A stretch of 64,000 nt of DNA from Mobula hypostoma (lineage: Eukaryota): assembly GCF_963921235.1 (NCBI RefSeq), contig NC_086108.1, positions 27,654,001 through 27,718,000 on the forward strand, written 5' to 3'. The notes under the pieces were generated by a model. That model was not told the DNA's origin and searched no databases. It saw nothing but the letters and a program-made list of their open reading frames with translations. Of the stretch, positions 4,932-62,190 are shown piece after piece. Positions within the stretch are counted from its first letter, which is position 1, and each line of letters starts with the position of its first letter. The translations under genes were made by a program, and so were the position numbers.

Positions 4932-5687
4932 AACATAGAAACATAGAAACATAGAAAATAGGTGCAGGAGTAGGCCATTCGGCCCTTCGAGCCTGCACCG
5001 CCATTTATTATGATCATGGCTGATCATCCAACTCAGAACCCAGCCTTCCCTCCATACCCCCTGACCCCTGTAGCCACAAGGGCCATATCTAACTTCCTTT
5101 TAAACATAGCTAATGAACTGGCCTCAACAGTTTGCTGTGGCAGAGAATTCCACAGATTCACCACTCTCTGTGTGAAGAAGTTTTTCCTAATCTCGGTCCT
5201 AAAAGGCTTCCCCTCTATCCTCAAACTGTGACCCCTCGTTCTGGACCTCCCCAACATCGGGAACAATCTTCCCGCATCTAGCCTGTCCAATCCCTTTAGG
5301 ATCTTATACGTTTCAATCAGATCCCCCCTTAATCTTCTAAATTCCAACGAGTACAAGCCCAGTTCATCCAGTCTTTCTTCATATGAAAGACCTGCCATCC
5401 CAGGAATCAATCTGGTGAACCTTCTTTGTACTCCCTCTATGGCAAAGATGTCTTTCCTCAGATTAGGGGACCAAAACTGCACACAATACTCCAGGTGTGG
5501 TCTCACCAAGGCCTTGTACAACTGCAGTAGTACCTCCCTGCTCCTGTACTCGAATCCTCTCGCTATAAATGCCAGCATACCGTTCGCCTTTTTCACCGCC
5601 TGCTGTACCTGCATGCCCACTTTCAATGACTGGTGTATAATGACACCCAGGTCTCGTTGCACCTCCCCTTTTCCTAATCGGCCACCA
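4932..5687 (-). mobile_element. Young 5'-truncated CR1 LINE (756 bp), inserted in a degenerate SINE
   Basis: Open RT C-terminus (YKALVRPHLEYCVQFWSP...FFTQRVVNLWNSLP); (TTTCTATG)n tail; possible TSD ACCAG at 4927-4931 and 5684-5688; near-identical to 40712-41467. Confidence 0.95.
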
Positions 5688-6617: not shown

Positions 6618-7235
6618 AGACACAGCAGACTACAGATACTGGAATCTGGAGCAACACCCAAAATGCTGGAGAAAATCAGTGGGTCAAGTAACATCTGCGG
6701 AGAGACATAGACAGTTGATGTTTCAGACCGTGACCCTTCACCTGGATTTCTGGTTCTCTGCTCCATCCACTACCACCTCCCTTCGCCACAAACTTCCTCT
6801 ACTTTGCTTTTAGCAACAGGGGATTTATTTACTGAGAGATACCGCGTAGAAGAGGCCCTTTTGGCCCACTGAGCCACGCCAACCAGCAACCCACCAATTT
6901 AACCCTACCCTAATCACAGGACAATTTACAGTGACCAATTGACACACTAACTGGTGTGCCTTCGGACTGTAGGAGGAAACCGGAGCACCCAGAGGGAAGC
7001 CACACACACATGGGAAGAGCGTACAAACGTTCCTGCAAAGGATGCTGGGATTGAACGCTCAACTTTTATACCCCAAACAGTAATAGCATCATACTAACTG
7101 CTAATAGTAAATCCAACAAATTGGACCTCCAACTTTCAGCTTTGGCATCCAAATGAAGGGTCTCAACCCAAAATCTTGACTGTCCAATTCCCTCCTTAGC
7201 TGCTGCTGGGAATCCAGAGGTTTTTATCTGTTATT
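6618..7235. mobile_element. Old PLE terminal-repeat remnants in inverted orientation (~6618-6748 and ~7148-7235) flanking a SINE
   Basis: CAGATACTGGAATC...AAAATGCTGGAG...GATGTTTCAGACCGTGACCCTTCA and GAAGGGTCTCAACCCAAAATCTTGACTG resemble the PLE end at 45445-45732 in opposite orientations. Confidence 0.6.
6826..7105 (-). mobile_element. HE1/V-SINE-like SINE
   Basis: GGAGGAAACCGGAGCACCCAGAGGGAAGCCACAC (reverse complement of the V-domain) plus a CR1-type tail. Confidence 0.75.
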
Positions 7236-22217: not shown

Positions 22218-22324
22218 TCTAATGAAATAGCCTGCATCACCCTCTGGAGTAGAAGGAAGAAATTTCTGCACACAAGTTTATAAATGTTCATTTATATTTG
22301 TTGTGTGTTGATTGTCTCTTCCTG

Positions 22325-22485
22325 GAAACACACACAAAGTGCTGGAGGAAATCAGCAGGCCAGGCAGCATCAAGGAAAACAGTACAGTCAATGTTTCAGG
22401 CCAGTGCTGTCTGGCCTGCTGAGTTCCTCCAGCATATTGTGTATGTTCCTCAGATTTCCAGCATCTGCAAATGTTCTCTTGTTTG
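22325..22485. mobile_element. Short fold-back PLE end
   Basis: ACACAAAGTGCTGGAGGAAATCAGCAGGCCAGGCAGCA is inverted to TGCTGTCTGGCCTGCTGAGTTCCTCCAGCATATTGTGT, followed by TTCCAGCATCTGCA. Confidence 0.75.
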
Positions 22486-23083
22486 TCTCTTCCAGGAACA
22501 AAGTATTCACGGATTTCTCCAACAACACAATTAAATTGTAAAATTGTTAAAACTGTAACGCTTTGTACTTACCATCATTTACCCAGTATACAATCATAAG
22601 GAACATTATCATTTAGCCTCTTTACCTCACAGGCTGCATTCTGGTCAGGTCTAGCAGGCAAAAAGGCAGCCTGAAGATGGAAAGTGTTGTGCAATGCATT
22701 GCAAGTATTTGTTCCTTAAACCTAATGTAGTGCTTTGTCCTGCATGAGAAGTAGCTTCAGGGGATAATTCATGGCTACCCCTGTTGCCAGAGCAAGTTAA
22801 TATAAAAATGGAAATAGAGAAGGAGATGGGTGGTGTTGAATTTTTTTCAGTTAAGCTTTGCATTGTGCTGCATATTGGCTCACTATATCTGAACCCAACT
22901 TCTTTTGCATTCTGATTGTAATACTCACCTGTCTAAGTCTCAGTTCAGGCAATCTGTAACCAACTTCCATTAAAAAAACCTCTAGCCAGTTTTTTCTTCT
23001 TCTTCGACAGAATTTAAGTAGTTTGCTTCGCATAAGAGATTTTTGATGCCACTATTGTAGGTAACTGTGAAATACTGGAAAGG

Positions 23084-28577: not shown

Positions 28578-31500
28578 TGTCACCGGGTTCAGATATGGCC
28601 CAAGTGTGGAGTGAGAGACACAGTAGCGGGTTGATAGTTCACAAAACTTTAAGGCGAACAGTGTTGAATAAAACAACAAACGCTAGGCCAAACAAGGCCA
28701 TTAACTAAATCTTTCAAACGGGAAACAAAGCCTACACTGCTGCTGAAAAGGACATCTAAATTTTAAACAAATACCGTTAGTCTTCAGCGTCAGTTGGCTG
28801 GTCAGTCCAATTTCTCAGGCAAGGCAGATGCAAACAGGCAGCGAAGCGTTGCTGTACTCTGTCCACGTCTCGACAAACATTATGACAAGTATGGAATTAA
28901 ATACTATCTCGATTAAATAATAATTAGCTGACACGTGCATATTCACAAGTGCAAATACCGTATCTACTGCGCTGCTGAATCCGTGGTTGTGAAAGGGCCC
29001 CCCTTCTCTAGGTTGAGGCGCCACGGACCTGTGTCCACTGGAAGTCCCAGATCAGTGACTTGTCCAAGATGTCCTTCACTGGGATCCAAGTACGTTCTTC
29101 TGGGCCATACCCTTGCCAGTCCACAAGATACTGGACCTTACCACATACCCAGCGAGATGCCAGGAAGTGCCGCACAGTATAGACAAGGGAACCATCTACC
29201 AGGCAGGGAGGAGGGGGATTTGGGGTGACTAGGGCCAGGGGAGAGGTAGTAACCGGCTTGAGCTGGGAAACATGGAATACTAGGTGGATTTTCAGTGATG
29301 CTGGTAGACTCCCAAGTCCATTGAATTCCCGGATGTCCAGCCAGACGGGTGGAGTGACCCCATTCCGACACTTTGGAACACACCTCAGCAGGGACAAACA
29401 GCCAGTTGGGAGGTTCCCCATCTGGGCCTGGATCTGATTATTGGGCGGCCCTCACCTCTGCCTCTGCTCCCCAGATCACCGGAGCAGCAATACACGAGCA
29501 AGAAAGAATGGGCTCTGAATGTGCACCATCCTCAGATCTGTTGAACTGCCAGAAGAGAGCAGCGGCTTTGTATTCTTGCTGCTGGGACGATAAGTGAGGA
29601 TGAAATTGAACTGTGTGAAGAAGAGAGCCCACCAGGCTTGACGAGAGTTGAGTCTCTAAGCACCCTGAAAATAGGAGAGGTTCTTGTCATCTGTCCAGAC
29701 CAAGAATGGATGCTCTGCCCCCTCCAGCCAGTGTCGCCAATCCTCCAGGGCCTCTTTGACGGCCAGAATCTCCTGGTTCCCAACATCATAACTCCTCTCA
29801 GCCAGAGTCAAATGACGGGAAAGAAAGGCGCAGGGGTGCAGCCGACTATCCACAGATGAGCGCTGAGAGAGGACATCTCCAATGCCTACGTCGGATGCAT
29901 CAACCTTGACAATGAATGGCTGAGATGGGTCTGAGTATTGCAGCAGCAGGGCAGTGGTGAAACATTGCTTTAGCTCTGAAAATATTTGGTCAGCTTTGTT
30001 CGACCAATGGAATCCTGTCAATATCTTCTTGGTGAGTGCATTAATTGGAGCTGTGATAGAGCCGAAATTCCGGATAAAAGTTCACAAACCCCATGAAGCG
30101 TCGCACCAGTTTACTGTAGACAGTTTGGGCCACTCTGCAACTGCCTGAACTTTACTAGGGTCAATTTGAACATTGGATGTGTCAAGTATATGGCCCAAAA
30201 ATTACACCTGGTCTTTATGGATTTCATATTTTTCAGGCTTGGCGTGCAGGTCATTTTCAAGGCGGCTGAGTACTCTCTGGACATGCTCCTGATAAGAGTG
30301 GGAATAGATGAGGATGTCATCTAAATACACAAACACAAACTGGTTCAACATGTCCCTGAGCACATCACTAACCAAGGCCACCAGGTATTCACAGTGGCCA
30401 TTAGAGATGTTGAAAGCCATTTTCCGCATATCCCTTTCTCTTATGCGAAACAGATTGTATAACCATTGCACAGGTCAATTTTGGAAAATATTGTTGCTCC
30501 CTGGAGATGTTCAAATGCAGACGCCAGCAAGGGAAGAGAGTAGCAGTTCTTCACCTTGATGTTGTTCAGGGGCCGATAATCAATGCAGGGATGGAAATTG
30601 CCACCTTTCTTGCTCATAAAAAGGAAACCCGCTCCTGCTAGCCAGGTTGATGGACGTATAAACCCCATGTTCAATAGTGCCTTAATATATTCCTCCATGG
30701 CCACCATTTCAGGACAAGAGAGGGAAAAGAGCCGACCCTGAGGAGGACTAGTGCCAGGTAGGAGGTCTATGGCATAGTTGTATGGCCGGTGTGGGGGCAG
30801 GGTGGTGGCCTCTCTTTTACTGAAAACCTCAAGGAGATCCGCGTATTCAGCCAGAATCCCAGACAGGTCCACATCCTTAGCTGACACAGGAGGGGATTCA
30901 TAGAATGGAACTTGAGTTGGACGCAGACAAGTAAACAGGCATGCCGGTCTCCACTCTTGGAGTACCTTCAGAGACCAATCCATCCCTGGGTTATGTGGGG
31001 ATAACGGGGGAGACCAGGTACCACTGGCAGTTCAGGTGAATTAACCAGATAGAAAGATAGTTCTTCATGATGGTTGCCTGCAAGCACGAGTTGGAGGGGT
31101 TGGGTGGAAAGGTGGATATGGCCAATTCCCAGAGGTCGACTGTCCAGCGCCTTGACTTTGATCTTTTCTCTTAATTCCTTAGTTGGAACTCCCCATCTTT
31201 GAGCAAGAGAGATGTCCATAAGATTCCTGGCTGCACCAGAGTCAGAGCCTTAAGTTCATGAGTCTGAGACCTCCACGACAAGGAAGCTGCCAGCATTACA
31301 GAATTAGGGGAAGCTGACTGAAGGGAGAACCGACCCATCAGGATTCCCCTCTCGTTTACTGGATGCTTGGAACATGCTGCCCGGAAGTGTCCTGAATCAC
31401 CATGGTAGAAGCAGGAATCTGTTCTCCAGTGCCGCTCTTGTTCCTCCCAAAACAGGCACCTGCTCCCCACTTGCATAGGCTCCTCCATGGGCTGGGTGCT

Positions 31501-32981
31501 GGGTGGTGAGGGCGAGGAAAGATGGTGATCACGTGAAGGAGGGGGACAAGTAAAGACAGTGATCAGGCGGCATGTAGGAAGTTTGAAACATTCTTTCCCT
31601 GTGCCACTCAGTCACCAGGTCATCAACTCGAATAGCCAGATTAATCAGGTCATCCAGACTATCTGCTCATCCTGGACAGTGATCTTATGCTGGACCCCTG
31701 CGTACAGCCCATGCTGGAAGGCAGTGATGAGAGAGCTGTCTCTACTGCAAAGGTATGGAATTTAACTACATAAGCTTTCACTGTTCCTCTGCCTTGGCAC
31801 AGGTCCAAGAGTCGGTGTGCAGCCTCCTGACGCCGTAGCGGAAGATCAAAAACCCTACTTAACTCTGCCGCAAACTGTCGAAACAACTGGACTGTGGGGT
31901 ATCCTTGCTCCCGTAAAGCGTTGAACAGGCTGAGTGGAGGTCCATCAAGAAGATTGACCATGTACGCCAGTTTTCACATCATCACCAAAATGACCAGGCT
32001 GGGCTTGGAATGTCAGCTCGCACTGGGTAATAAAGCTCCATCAAGATCACCAGAATATCTGCCTGGAGGTGGAATACTCGGTTCTTGTACGGACGCGGGT
32101 GTCTGTGGGGGTCCGAATGTAGGGGTCAGCTCTGGTCCAGCCGTGGGAGCAGTAGTTGCAGAGATTGTCGGGGCAGCAGAAAAGGAGGACCTGTGAGATG
32201 CTGGGAGTGGGACTGAGGCTGCTGAATTGCATTGGCAAGAACATTGATGGCTGTCAGCTGATGCTGGCTGTTCACAGTAAGTTCGTGGATGGCTGCCGTG
32301 AGTGTGGAAATCACAGACACCTGAGTCTGATTGTCTGCGGTGGGCTGTTGAACAGTTGCAGCTAGAGACGATACCTGTTCCTCCAAGTGAAACTGGGTTT
32401 GTCGACACGAGATTATTTGCCTCAGTGTCTCCGTCACTTCACTGAGAACAGATTCCATTGCTTGTTGTTTGTCTCCTACCTGACCAATGAATCTCACAGC
32501 CAAGGTCAGCTGCCCGCTCTCTGCTGCGTCCGTCTTTGGGTGTTCAAGACTTGCTCTCACTGGGTTCGGATATGGCCCAAGTGTGGAGTGAGAGGTACTG
32601 AAGCAGGTTGCTAGTTCACAAAACTTTAATGCTAATAGTGTTAAAGGGAAAATAAAACAGTAAACGCTTGGCCAAACAGGGCTGTTAACTAAAGCTCTCA
32701 AACAGGAAACGAAGCCTACACTGCGGCTGAAAGGAACATCTAAATATTAAACGAATGCCGCTAGTCTTCTGAGTTAGTTGGCTCGACAGTCCAATTTCTC
32801 AGGCAAGGCCGATGCAAAAAGGCAGTGAAGTGTTGCTGTGCTCTGTCCATGTCTCGACAAGCACTACGACGACAAGTATGCAATTAAATACTATCATGAT
32901 TAAATAATAATTAGCTGACATGTGCATATTCACAAGCTCAATTGCCATATCTACTGCGCTGCCAAATCCGTGGTTGTGACA
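28578..32981 (-). mobile_element. Ty3/Gypsy chromovirus (sushi-like) LTR retrotransposon, decayed, integrase core deleted
   Basis: LTRs 28578-28994 and 32555-32981; TSD ATATG/GTATG; PPT TAGAGAAGGGGG; degenerate gag knuckle [27 protein letters not shown]; RNase [10 protein letters not shown]...WRHWLEGA; chromodomain YLVDWQGYGPEERTWIP. Confidence 0.95.
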
Positions 32982-33253
32982 GTATGTTCCCTCCCAGGTA
33001 CCAGGATTAGGGATATCTCAGATTGGGTCCACAGCATTCTAAAGGGGAAAGGTGAGTTACCATAATTCCTGATATTGCAGATATTGGCACCAATGACATA
33101 GGAAGGATAAGGGACAAATTCCTGAAGAGAGAATTTTGTGAGTTAGGCAGAAAGCTGAAAAGCAGGACTTCCAGGATAGTAATCTTTGGCTTGCTGCATG
33201 TGCCACGTGCCAGTGAGGTTACAAATAGGATGAGTTGGCAGATTAATGCATCG

Positions 33254-33882
33254 TTGTCCGCCAGAGAAAGCAGGATCTCCCAGTGGCCACACATTTTAAT
33301 TCCACATCCCATTCCCATTCTGATATGTCTATCCACGGCCTTCTCTACTGCAAAGATGAAGCTACACTCAGGTTGGAGGAACAACACCTTATATACCATC
33401 TGGGTAGCCTCCAACCTGATGGCATGAACATTGACTTCTCAAACTTCCACTAATGCCCCACCTCCCCCTCGTATCCCATCCGTTATTTATTTATTTATAC
33501 ACACCCATTCTTTCTCTCTCTCTCCTTTTTCTCCCTCTGTCCCTCTGACTATACCCCTTGCCCATCCTCTGGGTTTCCCCCCCCCCCTTTTCTTTCACCC
33601 TAGGCCTCCTGTCCCATGATCCTCTCATATCCCTTTTGCCAATCACCTGTCCAGCTCTTGGCTCCATCCCTCCCCCTCCTGTCTTCTCCTATCATTTTTG
33701 ATCTCCCCCTCCCCCTCCCACTTTCAAATCTCTTACTAGCTCTTCTTTCAGTTAGTCCTGACAAAGGGTCTCGGCCCGAAACGCCGACTGTACCTCTTCC
33801 TAGAAATGCTGCCTGGCCTGCTGCATTCACCAGCAACTTTGATGTATGTTGCTTGAATTTCCAGCATCTGCAGAGTTCCTCG
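33254..33882 (+). mobile_element. Penelope-like element 3' fragment (GIY-YIG C-terminus + terminal repeat)
   Basis: Highly similar to the reverse complement of 48989-49575 (RQRKQDLPVATHFNS); carries a mutated hammerhead motif at 33754-33789. Confidence 0.9.
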
Positions 33883-39289: not shown

Positions 39290-41590
39290 CAGTGTCAGAA
39301 ACTGTAGGTTCAAGACCCATTCCAACACAAATGAGGGTGACATACCTGCACACTCTTCTTGTGCTAAGAGAAACAGCATCTTTTAGACTAAACCCTAACT
39401 TAAGCTCCCAGATGGACGTAAATGATTTTATCATAATGTTTTGGAAATTACTGAGGCTCTCTCTCCTAGATTCCAGTCAATATTAGCCAGAGAAAGTGGC
39501 TCACCTGAGGACTGGGAGAAATTCAGAGTTCAGCAGAGGAGGACAAAGGGCTTAATTAGGAAGGGGAAAAAAGATTATGAGAGAAAACTGGCAGAGAACA
39601 TAAAAACGGACTGTAAAAGCTTTTATAGATATGTAAAAAGGAAAAGACTGATAAAGACAAATGTAGGTCCCCTGCAAACAGAAACAGGTGAATTGATTAT
39701 GGGGAGCAAGGACATGGCAGACCAATTGAATAATTACTTTGGTTCTGTCTTCACTAAGGAGGACATAAATAATCTTCCAGAAATAGTAAGGGACAGAGGG
39801 TCCAGTGAGATGGAGGAACTGAGCGAAATACATGTTAGTAGGGAAGTGGTGTTAGGTAAATTGAAGGGATTGAAGGCAGATAAATCCCCAGGGCCAGATG
39901 GTCTGCATCCCAGAGTGCTTAAGGAAGTGGCCCAAGAAATAGTGCATGCATTAGTGATAATTTTTCAAAACTCGTTAGATTCTGGACTAGTTCCTGAGGA
40001 TTGGAGGGTGGCTAATGTAACCCCACTTTTTAAAAAAGGAGGGAGAGAGAAACCGGGGAATTATAGGCCGGTTAGCCTAACGTCGGTGGTGGGGAAACTG
40101 CTGGAGTCAGTTATCAAGGATGTGATAACAGCACATTTGGAAAGCGGTGAAATGATCGGACAAAGTCAGCATGGATTTGTGAAAGGAAAATCATGTCTGA
40201 CGAATCTCATAGAATTTTTTGAGGATGTAACTAGTAGAGTGGATAGGGGAGAACCAGTGGATGTGGTATATTTGGATTTTCAAAAGGCTTTTGACAAGGT
40301 CCCACACAGGAGATTAGTGTGCAAACTTAAAGCACACGGTATTGGGGGTAAGGTATTGGTGTGGGTGGAGAATTGATTAGCAGACAGGAAGCAAAGAGTG
40401 GGAATAAACGGGACCTTTTCAGAATGGCAGGCGGTGACTAGTGGGGTACCGCAAGGCTCAGTGCTGGGACCCCAGTTGTTTACAATATATATTAATGACT
40501 TGGATGAGGGAATTAAATGCAGCATCTCCAAGTTTGCGGATGACACGAAGCTGGGTGGCAGTGTTAGCAGTGAGGAGGATGCTAAGAGGATGCAGGGTGA
40601 CTTGGATAGGTTGGGTGAGTGGGCAAACTCATGGCAGATGCAATTTAATGTGGATAAATGTGAAGTTATCCACTTTGGTGGCAAAAATAGGAAAACAGAT
40701 TATTATCTGAATGGTGGCCGATTAGGAAGAGGGGAGGTGCAACGAGACCTGGGTGTCATTATACACCAGTCATTGAAAGTGGGCATGCAGGTACAGCAGG
40801 CGGTGAAAAAGGCGAACGGTATGCTGGCATTTATAGCGAGAGGATTCGAGTACAGGAGCAGGGAGGTACTACTGCAGTTGTACAAGGCCTTGGTGAGACC
40901 ACACCTGGAGTATTGTGTGCAGTTTTGGTCCCCTAATCTGAGGAAAGACATCCTTGCCATAGAGGGAGTACAAAGAAGGTTCACCAGATTGATTCCTGGG
41001 ATGGCAGGTCTTTCATATGAAGAAAGACTGGATGAACTGGGCTTGTACTCGTTGGAATTTAGAAGATTGAGGGGGGATCTGATTGAAACGTATAAGATCC
41101 TAAAGGGATTGGACAGGCTAGATGCGGGAAGATTGTTCCCGATGTTGGGGAGGTCTAGAACGAGGGGTCACAGTTTGAGGATAGAGGGGAAGCCTTTTAG
41201 GACCGAGGTTAGGAAAAACTTCTTCACACAGAGAGTGGTGAATCTGTGGAATTCTCTGCCACAGCAAACTGTTGAGGCCAGTTCATTAGCTATGTTTAAA
41301 AGGAAGTTAGATATGGCCCTTGTGGCTACAGGGGTCAGGGGGTATGGAGGGAAGGCTGGGTTCTGAGTTGGATGATCAGCCATGATCATAATAAATGGCG
41401 GTGCAGGCTCGAAGGGCCGAATGGCCTACTCCTGCACCTATTTTCTATGTTTCTATGTTTCTATGTTAATATTACTGTCGCTTTGCTATTTGTAGCAGTT
41501 TTCTCTGTTTAAATGGCTACAATTTAAAATGCTCTCCATTGGTTGTAAAAGTATCTTGTGATAACATGAGAGAATGAAAAGCTCTATTTA
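39290..41590 (+). mobile_element. Ancient Deu-domain-like SINE split by the young CR1
   Basis: GGTTCAAGACCC B-box and CAGATGGACGTAAATGAT...CCAGTCAATATT before the CR1; TTGCTATTTG...CATTGGTTGTAAAAG...TGAAAAGCTCTAT after it. Confidence 0.45.
39486..41467 (+). mobile_element. Young 5'-truncated CR1 LINE; ORF2 (RT) open except for one in-frame TGA
   Basis: ORFs 39441..40376 and 40398..41366 share a frame; TSD AATATTA at 39479-39485 and 41468-41474; (TTTCTATG)n tail. Confidence 0.97.
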
Positions 41591-44358: not shown

Positions 44359-45546
44359 CTTAGCTCCGCCTCCTCTAGGGGAAAGGGGTTGCTCTGCTGG
44401 GAACCTGCATAGACCAATGGGCTGAATGCCCTCTGGTATCATGTTAAGTACAGGCTCACCATCTTTCAGTACCCATGGAAAGAGTACTACCAGAATCATA
44501 AGAAAAGAATAAATGCATAAAAATAATGAACCATGCAAAATACATGCACAGCTGACTGGGAAGAAACTAGTTCCACATCTATGTGAGCTCTTAGATGCAT
44601 GCAGTGCACTTCCTTAATAACTCAACATCTGTGTACTTGGACAAATTTCTCTGAGGTCCAAGTTATCCTTCCTTTTTTGAGTGTCCTTACCTGAGCAGCA
44701 GCTTGCCAAGGTGACTGCTCCTCAGTATAAACCAATGAAGAACCTTGTTCTTCACAACTGTCAACAAAATTCCCGGGTTTTCTAGGAAAAATCACTTTCC
44801 GTTATACAGTGGCATCCAAAAGTTTGGGCACCCCAGTCAAAATTTCTGTTACTGTGAATAGTTACGTGAGTAGAAGATGAAATGATCTTCAAAAGTCATA
44901 AAGTTAAAGATTTAACATTCTTTTCAACATTTTAAGCAAGATTAGTGTTTTTTGTTCTGTACAATTTTAGAGTGAAAGAAAGGAAAGGAGCACCATGCAA
45001 AAATTCAGGCACCCCAAGAGATTTGAGCTCACAGATAACTTTTACCGAGGTCTCAGACCTTAATTAGCTTGTTAGGGCTGTGGCTTGTTCACAGTCATCA
45101 TTAGGAAAGGCCAGGTGATGCAAATTTCGAAGCTTTATAAATACTCTGACTCCTCAAACCTTCTCCCAACAATCAGCAGCCATGGGCTCCTCTAAGCAGC
45201 TGCCTAGCACTCTGAAAATTAAAATAAATGATGCCCACAAAACAGGAGAAGGCTACAAGAAGATAGCAAAGAGTTTTCAGGTAGCCATTTCCTCAGTTCG
45301 TAATGTAATCAGTTAACAGGAACAGTGGAGGTCAAGTTGAGGTCTGGAAGACCAAGAAAACTTTCCAAGAGAACTGTTTATAGGATTGCTAGAAAGGCAA
45401 ATCAAAACCCCCATTTGACAGCAAAAGACCCAGAGGAAGATTTAACGCAAACAACAGGAATTCTGCAGATGCTGGAAATTCAAGCAACATACATCAAAGT
45501 TGCTGGTGAACGCAGCAGGCCAAGCAGCGTCTATAGGAAGAGGTGC

Positions 45547-45582
45547 AGTCGACGTTTCAGGCCGAGACCCTTCGTCAGGACT
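45547..45582 (-). ncRNA. Minimal type-I hammerhead ribozyme motif
   Basis: Exact reverse complement of 45634-45669. Confidence 0.8.
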
Positions 45583-45633
45583 AACTGAAGGAAGAGTGAG
45601 TAAGGGAATCCCTTACTCACTCTTCCTTCAGTT

Positions 45634-45669
45634 AGTCCTGACGAAGGGTCTCGGCCTGAAACGTCGACT
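45634..45669 (+). ncRNA. Minimal type-I hammerhead ribozyme motif
   Basis: AGUC-CUGACGA-AGG(GUCUCGG)CCU-GAAA-CG-UC/GACU: stem I AGUC:GACU, intact core boxes, GUC cleavage triplet ending at 45665. Confidence 0.8.
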
Positions 45670-48600
45670 GCACCTCTTCCTATAGACGCTGCTTGGCCTG
45701 CTGCGTTCACCAGCAAATTTGATGTATGTTGTCAGAGGAAGATTTAGTTGACTCTGGAGTGGTGGTGCACTGTTCTACTGTGCAGTGACACCTGCACAAA
45801 TATGACCTTCATGGAGGAGTCATCAGAAGAAAACCTTTCCTGCGTCCTCACCACAAAATTCAGCGTCAGAAGTTTGCAAAGGAACGTCTAAACAAGACTG
45901 ATGCATTTTGGAAACAAGTCCTGTGGACTGATGAATTTAAAATAGAACTTTTTGGCCACAATGAGCAAAGGTATGTTTGGAGAAAAAAGGTTGCAGAATT
46001 TCATAAAAAGAACACCTCTCCAACACAGGGGTGGATTGATCATGCTTTGGGATGTTTTGCAGTCAGTGGTACGGGGAACATTTCACTGGTAGAGGGAAGA
46101 ATGAATTCAATTAAATACTAGCAAATTCTGGAAGTAAACGTCACTCCGTCTGTAAAAAAGCTGAAGATGAAAAGAGGATGGCTTCAACAACAGGATAATG
46201 ATCCTAAACACACCTCAACCTCCACAATGGACTACCTCAAGAGGTGCAAGCTGAAGGTTTTGCCGTGGCCCTCATAGTCCCCCGACCTATACATCATTGA
46301 AAATCTGTGGATAGACCCCAAAAGAGCAGTGCATGCAAGAATCTCACAGAACTAGAAGACTTTTGCAAGGAAGAATGGGCGAAAATCCCCCAAACAAGAA
46401 TTGAAAGACTCTTAGCTGGCTACAGAAAGCGTTTACAAGCTGTGATACTTGCCGAAGGGGGTGTTACTAAGTACTGACCATGCAGGGTGCCCAAACGTTT
46501 GCTTCGGGCCTTTTTCATTTTTTGTTATTTTGAAACTGTAAAAGATGGAAATTAAAAAGTACTCATGCTTAAAATATTAAAGAAATGTATCCTCTTTAAC
46601 TTTATGTCTTTTGGAAATCAGGTCATCTTTTACTCACTTAGCTATTCACAGTAACAAAAATTTTGACCAGGGATGCCCTAACTTTTGCATGCCACTGTAT
46701 CACTCCTCTCTCTGAGCTCTTTGGGACAATAGAAACAGAAACAAACAGTTTGCAAACACAAAGAAGTGCAGGGGTAATGGTTAACGACTGCACCTGACTC
46801 GCAAACATGTGTGCCCTGGCAGTTCATCATCACCAGTCTTGACATTTAATGACAGCACGCTGCGTCTTCAGGAACTTCAATCTCTTCCACTAGCTGGTGG
46901 AATGTTAAAGGCAATTTTGAGATGAACAACCATGAGCAACGTCCACAGACACTCCTCAGAAACTAGCTATCTGAAGGATGAAAATGAAGCAATTGTATAA
47001 GCCCAGGTACTAAAACATTACGAAGATGAGTTGCACACATTGTGAAGTGGATCTTCTTGAAATGACTTAAAACCTCTGGGGTTTGTAATGGAGTCGAAAT
47101 GCAAGTCAGGCATTTTAAAAAAAACACTTATGTTTCTTAAGCTCCTTTAAGTGCATGATTTGAAAATGCATCTCAGAATACAGATCAATCTGGGCATTTA
47201 CTGAAATGCCTCCACTCACAGACTTAACCAGGTGAGCGCAGCAAAGCTGTCTCAAAGAAGATGACCTTATCTAATAATTGATGTGCATCATACATTGTGG
47301 GTGGAATCACTGCTAGGCAAGAATGTTCTATACATTGGATTCCTCACTGTACCTGCATTTCCTAGTGGAGAGCAGGTGTTAGTTAGTTCTAATATTTCAT
47401 CAGTTTTGCTGCTTCCTGCTCCTTAACAGCTGTCAAGAAATCACTAGCTCCTGGACTCGAGAATCCTATCACCACTGACAGCTCCTTGAACCGTGCAACT
47501 GCAAAAGGCTTTGTTGAAAATTTAATCCTCTCAACGATGTATCTTCAAATGACCACCACCATCCAAAGGCAGCCGAAAGATGCAGGCAATCGGAATAATC
47601 TTTTAAAGACTAAGAGCGCTGCCACAATAATTCAATGCAGATGCTGTAAATTTTATGCACTTCATGCTGCAAATATGTGTCAGAGTATCTCAACAAAATA
47701 AAATCTCACACATCAGACTTCCACAGAATGCTGTACTCTGCTCTGCTCTTCTTTCCTAAGGTTTGGATGAGATGTTCCAAGCTCTCACCAGTATGGCAAA
47801 TATTCCATTATTTTACATATTGTCTTCCTGATTTCTGGCTGAGTCAATTCTTCTCATTCCCTTTTATTTATCTTGTCCCTCCTCTACTGTGTCACTCAGA
47901 GTCATAGATTCATGCAGCATGGGACAGGCCCAACAGACGTACTCATTCGTGCCAACCAAGATGTCCATCCAAGCTCGTCCTGTGTTTAGAAGGTATGCTT
48001 CTAACCTTTCATCTCCATGCACCTGTCCAAGTGTCTTGTAAAAGTTGCTATTATACTAGCCTTGGGCACTTAGTTGGTTCCTATTAAATCTTTCCCTTCT
48101 TACTTCCTTCCTTTCCTTTCCCAACTTTCACATCAACAATGATGACTCTCCTTCTGTGGGTGTTCCTAAGATGTGCCCTGAACCTCAGTGCATTCTTTCT
48201 GGTTGGTTTGGGCCAACAAATCCATCCAGCCACAGTATCCCTTCCAGTTTTCACATTGAGATGCATCAGTCCTAAACCCTATGATATCTCAATTCCATGG
48301 TCTTTCTACATAGCTCAACACTCCTTACTTCTGCAAGTGTTAATCCTCCCCATAGTCTTCTTGTGTCTACCTATATTAATGCCTTTTCCAGGGATCTGAC
48401 TAAGACATGGCAGACTCTAGTAAAAGCTGCTAGGGCTGATTCTATGCTGTGAATATCATGTAGGTCTATGCAAGACCGTCATGTAGGACTGCACCCACAA
48501 AACCTGTTACCCCCTTCATCTGGACCTGCAACCACTCAAACCTACTAAACCAAACCAAACAGCCAACTCCTAATGACTTCAAGGTGTCACCATCATGACA

Positions 48601-48988
48601 GTGATGTGGAGAGAATGAGTCATGAGTTTTGACCTGGCCTTCAGCAGGTCCCTGCCTCAAGACCTCCTGATGGTCTTCTGACTGCTCATGCTTCCGTTGA
48701 TCAGAGACATACAGAATTTGTTGGAAATACTTTATTTTTTAAAAAAATTACCGAAGAGTTTCATTTATGTATAGCACTGTCATGGTCTGGTATGTGAAAT
48801 TTGCATTCGGGTTCATGGTCCGGTCCATGACAAGCACATTGGCCATTTTTCTTTATTTAGTAGTTTTCCTTGCCTGTGATGTCCATTTATTGACCATCTC
48901 AGATAGCCTTTGGTGGTGTGATGACTTCTCAATCTGCTGTACTTAAGTAGCAACTTCCAGGATTTAAACCTTACAATAGTAGAAACAG

Positions 48989-49909
48989 CAACACACATCA
49001 AAGTTGCTGGTGAACGCAGCAGGCCAAGCAGCATCTATAGAAAGAGGTGCAGTCGACGTTTCAGGCCGAGATCCTTCGTCAGGACTAACTGAAGGAAGAG
49101 TGAGTAAGGGATTTGAAAGCTGGAGGGGGAGGGGGAGATCCAAAATGATAGGAGAAGACAGGAGGGGGAGGGATGGAGCCGAGAGCTGGACAGGTGATAG
49201 GCAGAAGGGGATACGAGAGGATCATGGGACAGGAGGTCCGGGAAGAAAGACGGGGGGGGGGGTGACCCAGAGGATGGGCAAGAGGTATATTCAGAGGGAT
49301 AGAGGGAGAAAAAGGAGAGTGAGACAAAGAATGTGTGCATAAAAAAGAGTAACAGATGGGGTACGAGGGGGAGGTGGGGCCTAGCGGAAGTTAGAGAAGT
49401 CAATGTTCATGCCATCAGGTTGGAGGCTACCCATACGGAATATAAGGTGTTGTTCCTCCAACCTGAGTGTGGCTTCATCTTTACAGTAGAGGAGGCCGTG
49501 GATAGACATGTCAGAATGGGAATGGGATGTGGAATTAAAATGTGTGGCCACTGGGAGATCCTGCTTTCTCTGGCGGACAGAGCGTAGATGTTCAGCAAAG
49601 CGGTCTCCCAGTCTGCGTCGGGTCTCACCAATATATAAAAGGCCACATCGGGAGCACTGGACGCAGTATATCACCCCAGTCGACTCACAGGTGAAGTGAT
49701 GCCTCACCTGGAAGGACTGTTTGGGGCCCTGAATGGTGGTAAGGGAGGAAGTGTAAGGGCATGTGTAGCACTTGTTCCGCTTACACGGATAAGTGCCAGG
49801 AGGGAGATCAGTGGGGAGGGATGGGGGGGACGAATGGACAAGGGAGTTGTGTAGGGAGCGATCCCTGCGGAATGCAGAAAGAGGGGGGGAGGGAAAGATA
49901 TGCTTAGTG
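48989..49909 (-). mobile_element. Penelope-like element (Neptune-type), 5'-truncated, with open GIY-YIG endonuclease frame
   Basis: Frame reads ...CKRNKCYTC...GVIYCVQCSRCGLLYIGETRRRLGDRFAEH...HF...E...GMN* (stop 49381-49383); TSD AATAGTAGAAACAG at 48975-48988 and 49922-49935. Confidence 0.95.
49051..49086 (-). ncRNA. Minimal type-I hammerhead ribozyme motif
   Basis: Minus strand AGUC-CUGACGA-AGG(AUCUCGG)CCU-GAAA-CG-UC-GACU, in the sense orientation of the PLE ORF. Confidence 0.8.
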
Positions 49910-50308
49910 TAGAAATAGTAGAATAGTAGAAACAGAGTAGTTTCTTGAGCTAGGAGATAGAGGTAGAATTGTCAGTTCACCTGCTGTTCTTCTCCTCCGT
50001 GGCAGTATTATCAGAGTAGTCTCTGCAAGTAATTACAATGACTTTTGCACATAGTACACAATGGAGACACTGTACACTTGTGGTGAAGGAGATAAATCTT
50101 TAGGCTCGTGGATGTGGTGCTAATCAAATAAGCAGATTTGCATTGACATTCTTGAGGGATGTTGGAGCCACACTCATCTCAGCAGTGCCACGTGGATGGT
50201 GGAGAGACCTTTGGGAATCCGGAAGTGAATCATCACTGCAGGCTATATAGCCTTTGACTTGTTTTTGTAGCATGGTATTGTCTCCCTGAGTTTATCGTCA
50301 ATGGTGGC

Positions 50309-61569: not shown

Positions 61570-62190
61570 ATACTATACACTTTAGATTCTGCAGATGATG
61601 AAATCCAGAGTAACACACATAAAATGCTGAAGGAACTCAGCAGGTGAGGCAGCATCTCTGGAGAGGAATAAAGCCTTGACATTCTGAGCTGACACCTTTC
61701 ATCAGGACTGGAAAGGAAGCTGGAAGAAACAAGAATAAGAAGGTGAAGAGAGAGGAAGGAGCACAAGCTGGTAGGAAATAGGTGAATACAGATGAGTGGT
61801 GAATAGGTGAAGGCAGGTGGGTAAGGCGGGGGGATGATGAAATGAAATGCAGTGAGAAGCTGGGAGCAGAAAGGTGGAAAAGTGAAAGAGCTGAAGAAGA
61901 AGGAATCTGATTGGAAAGAAGAGAGGACCAAAAGAGAAAGGAAAGGAAGGATTCCAGATGGGGGTGATAGGTAGGTGAAGAGAAGGGAAAGGGTAAGAAG
62001 GGAGCCAGAATGGGGAACAGAAAAAGAGAAAATTACCAGAGCTGGAGAAATCAATGTTCATGTGATCAGGCTTGAGGCTATCAGAACAGAATATGAGGTG
62101 TTGCTGCTCCAACCTGTGATGAGTAGACCAACATGGTGGGCTTGGCAATGGAGAATTGCATTCAACATAGAGATCAATAGCTTTCTGATT
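61570..62190 (-). mobile_element. Older Penelope-like element 3' fragment
   Basis: LEQQHLIFCSDSLKPDHMNIDFS matches the GIY-YIG C-terminus; degenerate hammerhead at ~61673-61710. Confidence 0.8.

Follow-up and report, generated by a model that had tools for sequence, protein, structure and literature searches.

A probable head-to-head insertion of two PLE ends within a decayed Tc1 transposon

A palindromic insert in a Tc1 pseudogene

The window, that is the whole 64-kb stretch of DNA that was analysed, carries on its forward strand a Tc1-family DNA transposon with a transposase pseudogene (44807-46697), recognised by a TA on each side, TA-CAGTG...CACTG-TA ends and old TIRs that are 82% alike. 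Without the insert described below and one TSD copy, this transposon measures 1589 bp. Its coding traces consist of weak Pfam matches to HTH_SB and HTH_Tnp_Tc3_2, below the curated cut-offs; with the insert removed the longest stop-free stretch is 110 aa, and the loose ends of contigs reveal a 10-nt deletion at 45309/45310 relative to other copies of the family. The earlier note on this DNA placed the insertion within a Tc1 transposase: the Tc1 host is retained, but the transposase was already broken independently of the insert. The presence of this Tc1 copy in the sister organism B is only suggested, since the X5 contig leading from the flank into Tc1 overlaps by 26 letters, short of the 31-letter rule.

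Inverted-repeat analysis of the insert gave two arms of 123 nt each (45485-45607 and 45609-45731), 122/123 complementary and separated by a 1-nt spacer, A45608. Pairing is perfect over the inner 108 bp, and the sole mismatch, G45499 against the partner of 45717, lies in the outer part; as G is also present in the copies at 48989 and 33851, the odd base is that of the right arm. The 64 kb contain no second exact inverted repeat with arms of at least 11 and a spacer of at most 10, and five shuffles gave none either. The 247-bp palindrome first reported thus stands with its arms, mismatch and spacer but not as the size of the insert, which is 288 nt once a 40-nt tail on the left arm (45445-45484, minus strand) and a single T on the right (45732, A on the bottom strand) are included. 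This T has no counterpart in the element or in the flank of the left TSD and is probably untemplated in origin.

The insert is flanked by a 14-bp TSD (CAGAGGAAGATTTA) at 45431-45444 and 45733-45746, identical at 14/14 positions, after which Tc1 continues; when 300 pairs of positions were drawn at random from the window, none gave a match of at least 12 even with one mismatch allowed. The perfect TSD claimed earlier is therefore upheld, and with it the reading of an ORF-less insert that arose in a single insertion event. The left arm lies on the minus strand and the right arm on the plus strand in element sense, both being the same pLTR fragment from the 3' end of a PLE, so that a 5'-truncated copy stands head to head with an adjacent inverted copy. 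At the junction (45607-45608) the match to the element runs to 45607 on the top strand and, over 125 nt, to the same position on the bottom strand, with a 1-nt overlap. On the bottom strand the central A corresponds to the next base of the element and is hence element-derived. The palindrome is genuine, yet of an ordinary kind, in which one event placed two short PLE ends head to head.

The parent element and its shared ends

The arms are 96-97% identical to positions 48989-49111 (119/123 for the left arm, 118/123 for the right), which bears out the attribution to the terminal repeat of the PLE at 48989-49909. This separate 5'-truncated copy of the same subfamily (minus strand) has a tail-less end and is bounded by 14 exact bp of TSD (48975-48988 and 49922-49935), with a 12-nt filler at its 5' junction. 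It encodes at 49384-49860 a GIY-YIG endonuclease with a CX4CX2C linker and a CCHH motif, and the match of the arms to the 3' end of a copy bearing such an endonuclease sustains the PLE origin proposed for the insert. The GIY-YIG match itself (E=2e-4, 22.0 bits) falls just under the cut-off of 22.6. The three cysteines of the linker, CKRNKCYTC, are invariant in 9/9 aligned proteins, across which the CCHH residues are invariant or conserved. The protein has 28 relatives (best 94%), which carry RT motifs N-terminal to the linker; no RT of this PLE family was identified in the 64-kb window. A CX2-5CxxC linker upstream of a C-terminal EN is described as common to Neptune and Nematis in the consulted part of PMC8557442. 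By its linker, also present in Nematis, and its vertebrate host, the element may be assigned to the Neptune type, an assignment made from sequence features other than an RT tree. That the insert belongs to the class of two-armed insertions of an EN+ PLE is, in our judgement, almost certain.

The family is abundant in the ray genome. Contigs of X1 (possibly the assembly's own sample), X5, X9 and X15 were aligned to positions 44500-45625, and the resulting counts of ends are lower bounds. The left junction coincides with the main end of the family: at least 109 records of X1 and at least 89 of X5 stop at 45444, and the family contigs that end there have A/T-rich flanks. At least 113 records of X1 end at 45449. 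The outer end of the left tail may thus mark a distal RT start site. The 40-nt tail, confined to the left arm, falls within the range of the optional 30-40 bp PLE tail; homologues of it occur at 22445-22484 and, in part, at 33852-33880. The right junction is the end of the independent 48989 copy and, within ~1 nt, of an arm at 22328, and at least 6 records of X15 stop at 45483, so that a proximal RT start site may be placed at the outer end of the tail-less arm. Both arms carry a rare G at 45529, where A accounts for 98.7% (X1), 95.4% (X5), 98.4% (X9) and 98.9% (X15) of the summed word depth, a measure distinct from copy number. Several of the listed joints stop at 45545-45554, near the predicted hammerhead cut, but were set aside, since alignments are also interrupted at this place by the divergence of subfamilies and by CpG decay. 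The matches listed for the contigs of the four samples, in which repeats swamp the signal, include neither the centre junction nor an empty site.

An older two-armed insertion of a related PLE subfamily (22314-22498) serves as an internal control. Its arms are unequal, the tail-less one measuring ~76 nt and the tailed one ~42+40 nt, and its TSD is 14 bp long with one mismatch (16 if the junction TT is counted). TSDs of ~14 bp surround three of the six PLE-end copies examined in the window; none was found for the other three (6.6k, 33k and 61k). An inverted partner was not detected beside the 6.6k, 33k, 49k and 61k copies (scores 18-22). Searches with two element patterns gave no match in viral contigs or prokaryote genomes, and 0 and 1 matches in metagenomes; the sole metagenomic match (L001) was discarded, as it has no likeness to the element beyond the search pattern. 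A literature search on this family in rays gave no PLE work among the matches listed.

Hammerhead motifs and RNA folding

Each strand of the insert bears the core of a minimal type I hammerhead, as had been noticed: on the plus strand at 45633-45670 in the right arm, with a predicted cut after C45665, and on the minus strand at 45583-45546 in the left arm, with a predicted cut between 45551 and 45550. The motif comprises a helix I of 5 bp, CUGACGA, an unpaired A, a helix II of 4 bp with a CUCG loop, G10.1·U11.1, GAAA and the palindrome ACGU as helix III. All the elements of the minimal PLE hammerhead are thus present: the CUGANGA / GAAA / UH core, helices I and II, an unpaired base at 9-10.1 and a palindromic helix III stub. 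Both arms and the 48989 copy have G·U in place of the conserved G10.1-C11.1 pair, which the 33766 copy retains as G-C. A G·U at this place lowers the activity expected of a hammerhead; it is a variant of the minimal motif that leaves the assignment of origin unaffected.

The description of these motifs as intact ribozymes was overstated. Helix III, the ACGU palindrome, forms one A-U pair around 2 nt, which falls short of a canonical self-sufficient hammerhead, and needs a second copy in the same sense; to this is added the G10.1·U11.1. A single motif is predicted to favour a rod (-11.7 kcal/mol against -7.7 for the hammerhead fold). Rfam hammerhead models gave no match at the gathering score in the 64-kb window, nor at E <=10 in 45400-45800, and all Rfam models together gave none at gathering scores in the 64 kb. 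The 11 matches at E <=10 in 45400-45800 were dismissed as miRNA and sRNA models that fit any hairpin, far below their cut-offs.

The long hairpin that the earlier note expected of a transcript holds in prediction, at -261 kcal/mol. The competition between this hairpin and the ribozyme fold does not hold, for there would be hardly any: as the antisense arm is transcribed first on either strand, the hammerhead fold is predicted to cost ~67-79 kcal/mol, and to lie 67-69 kcal/mol uphill even in nascent RNA. The hammerheads are best modelled as dimer-dependent passengers of the pLTR, and both are predicted to be unable to cut within the insert, since each depends on a partner in the same sense, and the hairpin would bury both. 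The centre of the palindrome was also considered as a hammerhead cut site; this was set aside, the centre lying ~56 nt 5' of the predicted cut.

Origin of the two arms and comparison with known systems

Taken as a whole, the insert is a dead-on-arrival two-armed insertion of a Neptune-type PLE, which two-ended target-primed reverse transcription probably produced in a single event. Its identity, the TSD, the one-sided tail, both junctions at shared ends and the head-to-head joint with a 1-nt overlap are observed. In the proposed mechanism the GIY-YIG endonuclease, probably as a dimer, would nick both strands 14 bp apart and leave two 3' overhangs. From the top-strand end, one cDNA would begin at the distal start site and take in the tail; from the bottom-strand end, the other would begin at the proximal site, which lies 40 nt further in. 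The two cDNAs would abort after ~163 and ~125 nt, just before a G-rich tract, and would then be joined end to end and the gaps filled in. Both would be templated by RNA of one source copy, possibly by one molecule, and their near-equal stops would reflect either chance or a common stop.

Two separately primed cDNAs are favoured because both junctions match shared ends of the element and because the central A is templated on the bottom strand. Further support comes from 22314-22498, which repeats the pairing of a tailed and a tail-less arm and the ~14-bp TSD with arms of unequal length; the comparison of two-armed inserts rests on these two examples. The left nick follows GATTTA. In vitro, the PAc protein of an anole Poseidon PLE cuts and extends both target strands, according to the consulted sections of PMC11167929; this support is by analogy, as it comes from the Poseidon clade rather than from Neptune, and counts to that extent against the proposal. 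So do the bottom-strand nick site, which is not AT-rich, and the missing TSDs of the 6.6k, 33k and 61k copies. The arm ends, equal to within 1-3 nt, and the G45529 common to both arms also weigh against two-ended priming, which needs an extra assumption to explain them. Independent stops within 3 nt would occur in 0.4-5.6% of cases at assumed length scales of 800-60 nt, which is enough in so abundant a family.

The earlier note proposed a fold-back product of reverse transcription, which is only one of two mechanisms to be weighed and, in our view, a possible but rather doubtful one. A tail-primed cDNA would stall at 163 nt, turn back and use itself as template up to the tail boundary, and would then jump to the other target end or be joined to it. 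This single step accounts directly for the equal arm ends and for the rare G45529 in both arms, and junction palindromes, common in rotifer Penelope copies, have been read as self-priming on the antisense template (Arkhipova 2013, PMC3846280, in part). Yet the turn requires a loop of 1 nt, or else three untemplated bases that match the element sequence by chance, whereas no self-priming hairpin is predicted at the stop (-0.9 kcal/mol, with the 3' end unpaired in 12/12 end points). The fold-back would also have to stop exactly at the start of independent copies, and it would not produce the unequal arms of 22314-22498.

Long inverted repeats undergo conversion and centre rearrangement, so that an insert initially less symmetric could have been trimmed at its centre, or its arms homogenised, by template switching or conversion in the host. 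The perfect inner 108 bp, with the only mismatch further out, agree with such a history, and conversion would yield the shared rare base. We nevertheless regard it as unlikely: removal of a spacer exact to within 1 nt is improbable, centre deletions usually leave palindromes less symmetric, and the 14/14 TSD shows little sign of age. The same insert need not be very recent, as was first supposed, for 1 difference in 137 paired sites still has P=0.29 for an insert as old as the split from the sister organism B.

Returning to two-ended priming, one version of it, which we put forward tentatively, is that one RNA was copied twice by a dimer of the PLE protein. The two RT sites would load 40 nt apart on this RNA, and one overhang of the fixed 14-bp stagger would prime each; the tail-less cDNA would lead, and the tailed cDNA would trail it by strand displacement and stop 1-3 nt behind. 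In both short inserts of the window (2/2) the tailed arm is no longer than the tail-less one, as this version predicts. If true, it would give one common explanation of the tail and the inverted copy, of a TSD that hardly varies in length, and of the palindrome with its shared rare base, and would make PLE inversions a rule of the mechanism rather than an accident.

The idea that the palindromic unit is a small non-autonomous mobile element, recopied whole with a fixed turning point, appears very improbable. In its favour, the unit retains both start sites as well as the tail, the pLTRs of PLEs are able to act in cis on cargo of foreign origin (PMC3846280, in part) and animal retrozymes derive from pLTRs (bioRxiv 10.64898/2026.07.22.740005, in part). 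However, no second copy of the 45k centre junction was found within the 64 kb, the 22314-22498 insert turns elsewhere, the 123-bp duplex would probably bury the proximal start site and block the RT, and retrozymes are head-to-tail tandems rather than head-to-head pairs. The least probable explanation of all is an assembly or library artefact in the form of a fold-back chimera. Palindromes are a known artefact of long reads and of amplification. Inverted PLE structures also trouble assemblies (PMC8557442, in part). A fold-back chimera, however, would mirror the flank and would leave no tail confined to one arm, no mismatch between the arms, no TSD of 14 bp and no Tc1 that continues in register, and both junctions coincide here with real element ends.

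As an object the 45k insert has little weight, being an inactive remnant of a very abundant repeat within a transposon that is itself dead, and the combination of an inverted copy, a tail on one side, a TSD and a hammerhead on each strand has already been published. Its value is that of a clean footprint bearing on how PLEs make inverted copies and tails, whose origin is stated as unresolved in the consulted part of PMC8557442. Two-ended priming and fold-back can be told apart without bench work, from how long the arms and TSDs of two-armed inserts are, which arms carry a tail and which variants the arms share. Being near-perfect over 247 bp, the palindrome might also form a fragile site or a source of dsRNA.

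In L1 twin priming both target ends prime cDNA, and the resulting inversion is joined by microhomology inside one TSD. The present insert shares these features; the arms of L1 are adjacent, non-overlapping parts of the RNA, whereas both arms here are the same 123 nt from the 3' end of the element. Animal non-LTR retrozymes are likewise short, ORF-less, hammerhead-bearing and derived from PLE pLTRs, as far as the consulted part of bioRxiv 10.64898/2026.07.22.740005 describes them, but their tandem same-sense repeats permit dimer cleavage, which the one inverted pair found here, with no head-to-tail units or same-sense hammerheads, cannot.

The motifs resemble the metazoan PLE min-HHR in their type I core, short helix I, unpaired base at 9-10.1 and palindromic helix III stub. 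According to the consulted part of Cervera and De la Pena 2014 (PMC4209133), single min-HHRs gave no detectable cleavage, and Schistosoma has min-HHRs in pairs, one on each strand and separated by 100-700 bp. The motifs of the insert differ in helix II (4 bp, against 7-8 bp in Schistosoma) and at 10.1-11.1, where G·U replaces a G-C listed there as highly conserved. The closest layout is that of Pen2a_Av of Adineta vaga, in which excerpts of PMC3846280 and PMC8557442 describe a head-to-head inverted 5'-truncated copy, a junction palindrome, one TSD around the unit and, in insertions of this type with inverted pLTRs, a 30-40 bp tail on one end only. In contrast to Pen2a_Av, both copies here are cut down to the pLTR end, so that the insert consists of palindrome and tail without an ORF; the TSD is 14 bp instead of the 8-10 bp of the rotifer examples, and the junction overlap 1 nt instead of 15 bp.

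The nearest biochemical parallel is PAc of Anolis carolinensis (Frangieh et al. 2024, PMC11167929), whose RT, in the sections consulted, starts at two sites bounding the tail, uses both strands and prefers ATT, the protein being modelled as a dimer. PAc belongs to another clade, lacks the CX2-5CxxC linker and has a hammerhead that overlaps the ORF start, unlike the element described here, and those sections do not tie the two start sites to inverted insertions. Uncleaved RNA serves PAc as template, and both arms of the present insert likewise run through the predicted cut site.

A palindrome within a decayed Tc1 element

The palindrome is real and was correctly spotted in the earlier note, which had described near-perfect arms with one mismatch, a 1-nt spacer and a perfect 14-bp target-site duplication (TSD). 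Indeed, 122 of the 123 arm positions (45485-45607 versus 45609-45731) are complementary around a single A, and exact copies of the TSD, CAGAGGAAGATTTA, lie at 45431-45444 and 45733-45746. The insert between them measures 288 nt: the 247-nt palindrome is preceded by a 40-nt segment that has no counterpart on the right (45445-45484) and followed by a single T (45732). The 64-kb window has no second exact inverted repeat (arms of at least 11, spacer of at most 10), nor did any of five shuffles contain one, and duplications of 12 or more were absent from 300 random position pairs in the window; palindrome and TSD are therefore beyond chance.

The insert lies in a Tc1 element (44807-46697), which is flanked by TA and whose terminal inverted repeats are only 82% alike. 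The proposed Tc1 host is confirmed, but the transposase is already a broken frame without the insert, the longest stop-free stretch being 110 aa once the insert is removed. Contig alignment further revealed that this Tc1 lacks 10 nt at 45309/45310 relative to other copies. A Pfam scan of 25 of the 60 stop-to-stop frames of at least 110 aa in the window, plus two shorter Tc1 frames, gave matches for 10 of 27 frames, each typical of mobile elements, and none for the other 17. A host gene with short exons may lie within the window.

Two further repeat pairs were observed. A 756-bp inverted duplication (4932-5687 and 40712-41467; 99.3% identical, 35 kb apart) overlaps RT-coding sequence; it may consist of two young copies of a single retroelement or mark the boundary of a rearrangement. 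The second pair, in direct orientation, is about 420 bp long (28580-28995 and 32557-32982; 85% alike) and surrounds a chromodomain and SH3_Tf2-like frame, and region 28580-32982 appears to be a decayed LTR retrotransposon.

Source element and ends of the insert

As previously suggested, the arms match the terminal repeat of the Penelope-like element (PLE) at 48989-49909, being identical to its 3' end at 119/123 and 118/123 positions. The minus strand of this copy encodes a GIY-YIG endonuclease (Pfam E=2e-4, slightly below the cut-off) carrying a CX4CX2C linker and a CCHH motif, a signature of Neptune/Nematis-type elements according to portions of PMC8557442. The element is accordingly classed, by its linker and endonuclease motifs, as a putative C-terminal-EN PLE of Neptune/Nematis type. 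Among proteins, its closest relatives come from rays: a Mobula hypostoma protein at 94% and near-full-length Hypanus sabinus matches at 76-88%. This is a highly abundant family: from sequencing run X1, 80,619 contig records align to 1.1 kb, and depth is about 10 million over the arm versus 21.5 in unique flank, although depth does not equal copy number. Ray proteins annotated under the names of host genes (mucin-2, divergent kinase 1C, RTP3-like, chitinase domain protein 1 and NYAP1-like) also contain this PLE endonuclease, through either exonisation or annotation run-in.

Family contigs end at 45444 (at least 109 records in X1 and at least 89 in run X5) and at 45449 (at least 113 in X1), with A/T-rich flanks in both cases, and at least 6 records from run X15 end at 45483. 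Because family contigs terminate at the same position, the left junction corresponds to the family's tailed end. On the other side, the right arm's outer end, CAAC, is the exact end of the independent 48989 copy, and a tail-less arm at 22328 ends about 1 nt from it. The latter is part of an older insertion (22314-22498), from a related subfamily, that has the same plan of head-to-head arms, one tailed. These arms are unequal (tail-less about 76 nt; tailed right arm about 42+40 nt) and 37/42 alike across their overlap, and the 14-bp TSD has one mismatch. The 48989 copy (921 bp) has an exact 14-bp TSD (region 48975-49935), no inverted arm, and at its 5' junction a 12-nt filler resembling the target flank. 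PLE ends are also present as fragments at 33255-33880, 61586-62116 and 6630-6740, which are 72-91% similar to the arms; the hammerhead core of the 33k copy is mutated (CUGACAA, GAAACGCC). Of the six PLE-end copies examined, three have a TSD of about 14 bp, which suggests that the nicks are made at a fixed stagger; those near 6.6k, 33k and 61k yielded no TSD.

Joining of the arms and age of the insertion

In anole Poseidon, as described in parts of PMC11167929, the purified protein cuts both strands of the target and extends them, and reverse transcription begins at two sites bounding the genomic tail; the protein prefers ATT, uses uncleaved RNA as template and is modelled as a dimer. By analogy, each target end would here hold a cDNA start. 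The top-strand start would follow GATTTA at the distal site; the bottom-strand start, with one extra A, would lie at the proximal site, 40 nt away.

At the centre, the element match runs to 45607 on the top strand and the arms overlap by one base. The bottom-strand match continues for 125 nt, likewise to 45607, so the spacer A is the element's next base on that strand. The palindrome was probably produced by two-ended priming, with two cDNAs joined end to end. The earlier note had inferred an ORF-less fold-back product of PLE reverse transcription; the PLE origin stands, but a cDNA turning back on itself to make the second arm is less likely, since the turn requires a 1-nt loop or untemplated bases that happen to match the element (a 1-in-4 probability for the spacer base) and no priming hairpin is predicted at the cDNA end. 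Counting against two separately primed cDNAs are the arm ends, 1-3 nt apart, and a G at 45529 common to both arms. Independent stops this close have a chance of 0.4-5.6% under exponential scales of 800-60 nt, which we consider sufficient given how abundant the family is and how readily a perfect palindrome draws a reader's attention, independence and scales both being assumed. At 45529, A holds 95-99% of summed depth in all four runs; the shared G therefore points to one source copy for both arms, or to one arm having served to copy or convert the other. Later remodelling of the insert is improbable. Neither the centre junction nor the empty site was seen among the contigs listed for X1, X5, X9 and X15 over 44500-45625, and the questions of an artefact and of a mobile family therefore rest on sequence logic.

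Arms and TSD together differ at one of 137 paired sites (95% interval 0.02-4.0%). Contig alignment of the flank gave 6/333 differences between organism A and its sister B, so that, for an insertion dating from their split, one difference or none has P=0.29. The insertion is young, although conversion could mask its age; "very recent", as first proposed, is unsupported.

Hammerhead motifs and relation to known systems

In each arm, a 5-bp helix I accompanies CUGACGA, one unpaired A, helix II of 4 bp, GAAA, ACGU and C, the make-up of the minimal hammerhead in metazoan PLEs. According to parts of PMC4209133, helix III of this form is a palindromic stub requiring a second same-sense copy, a single motif does not cleave in vitro, and opposite-strand pairs 100-700 bp apart were previously reported. 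The claim of an intact hammerhead on each strand holds for the core, but the motif is of the minimal, partner-requiring kind and position 10.1-11.1 is G·U, the conserved G-C being retained by the 33766 copy. The monomer is predicted to prefer a rod (-11.7 versus -7.7 kcal/mol). With this head-to-head arrangement, a transcript of either strand would reach the antisense arm before the arm with the sense hammerhead, and adopting the hammerhead fold is predicted to cost 67.0 and 68.6 kcal/mol while the RNAs are nascent, rising to 78.5 kcal/mol once they are full.

Many of the joints listed at 45545-45554 for other copies of the family stop no more than 5 nt from the predicted cut (45550/45551). 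They could reflect cleaved RNA as template, or else places where subfamily divergence and CpG decay make alignments end. Three of the X1 contigs listed double back by about 35-37 nt across the core (45546-45582), possibly because the motif is tandemly duplicated over a very short span elsewhere in the genome; if true, this would permit a cis dimer.

Retrozyme identity was rejected: retrozymes, as presented in part of bioRxiv 10.64898/2026.07.22.740005, are same-sense tandems, whereas the arms here are head to head. Within the main texts of the open papers searched, nothing linked two RT start sites to inverted inserts, a point on which supplementary Figs S1-S2 of PMC11167929 and earlier literature may bear; the consulted portions of PMC8557442 call the origin of inverted PLE structures undefined, and those of PMC3846280 propose self-priming on an antisense template. 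Sections of both papers describe inverted, 5'-truncated copies set head to head, with a 30-40 bp tail on one side, a palindrome at the junction and a single TSD, in agreement with the earlier statement that PLEs often insert with inverted pseudo-LTRs. The insertion is thus of a kind already known for PLEs, a footprint of PLE integration of modest added value, and shares the layout of typical inverted PLE insertions in its shortest form, both arms being cut to the end of the terminal repeat.
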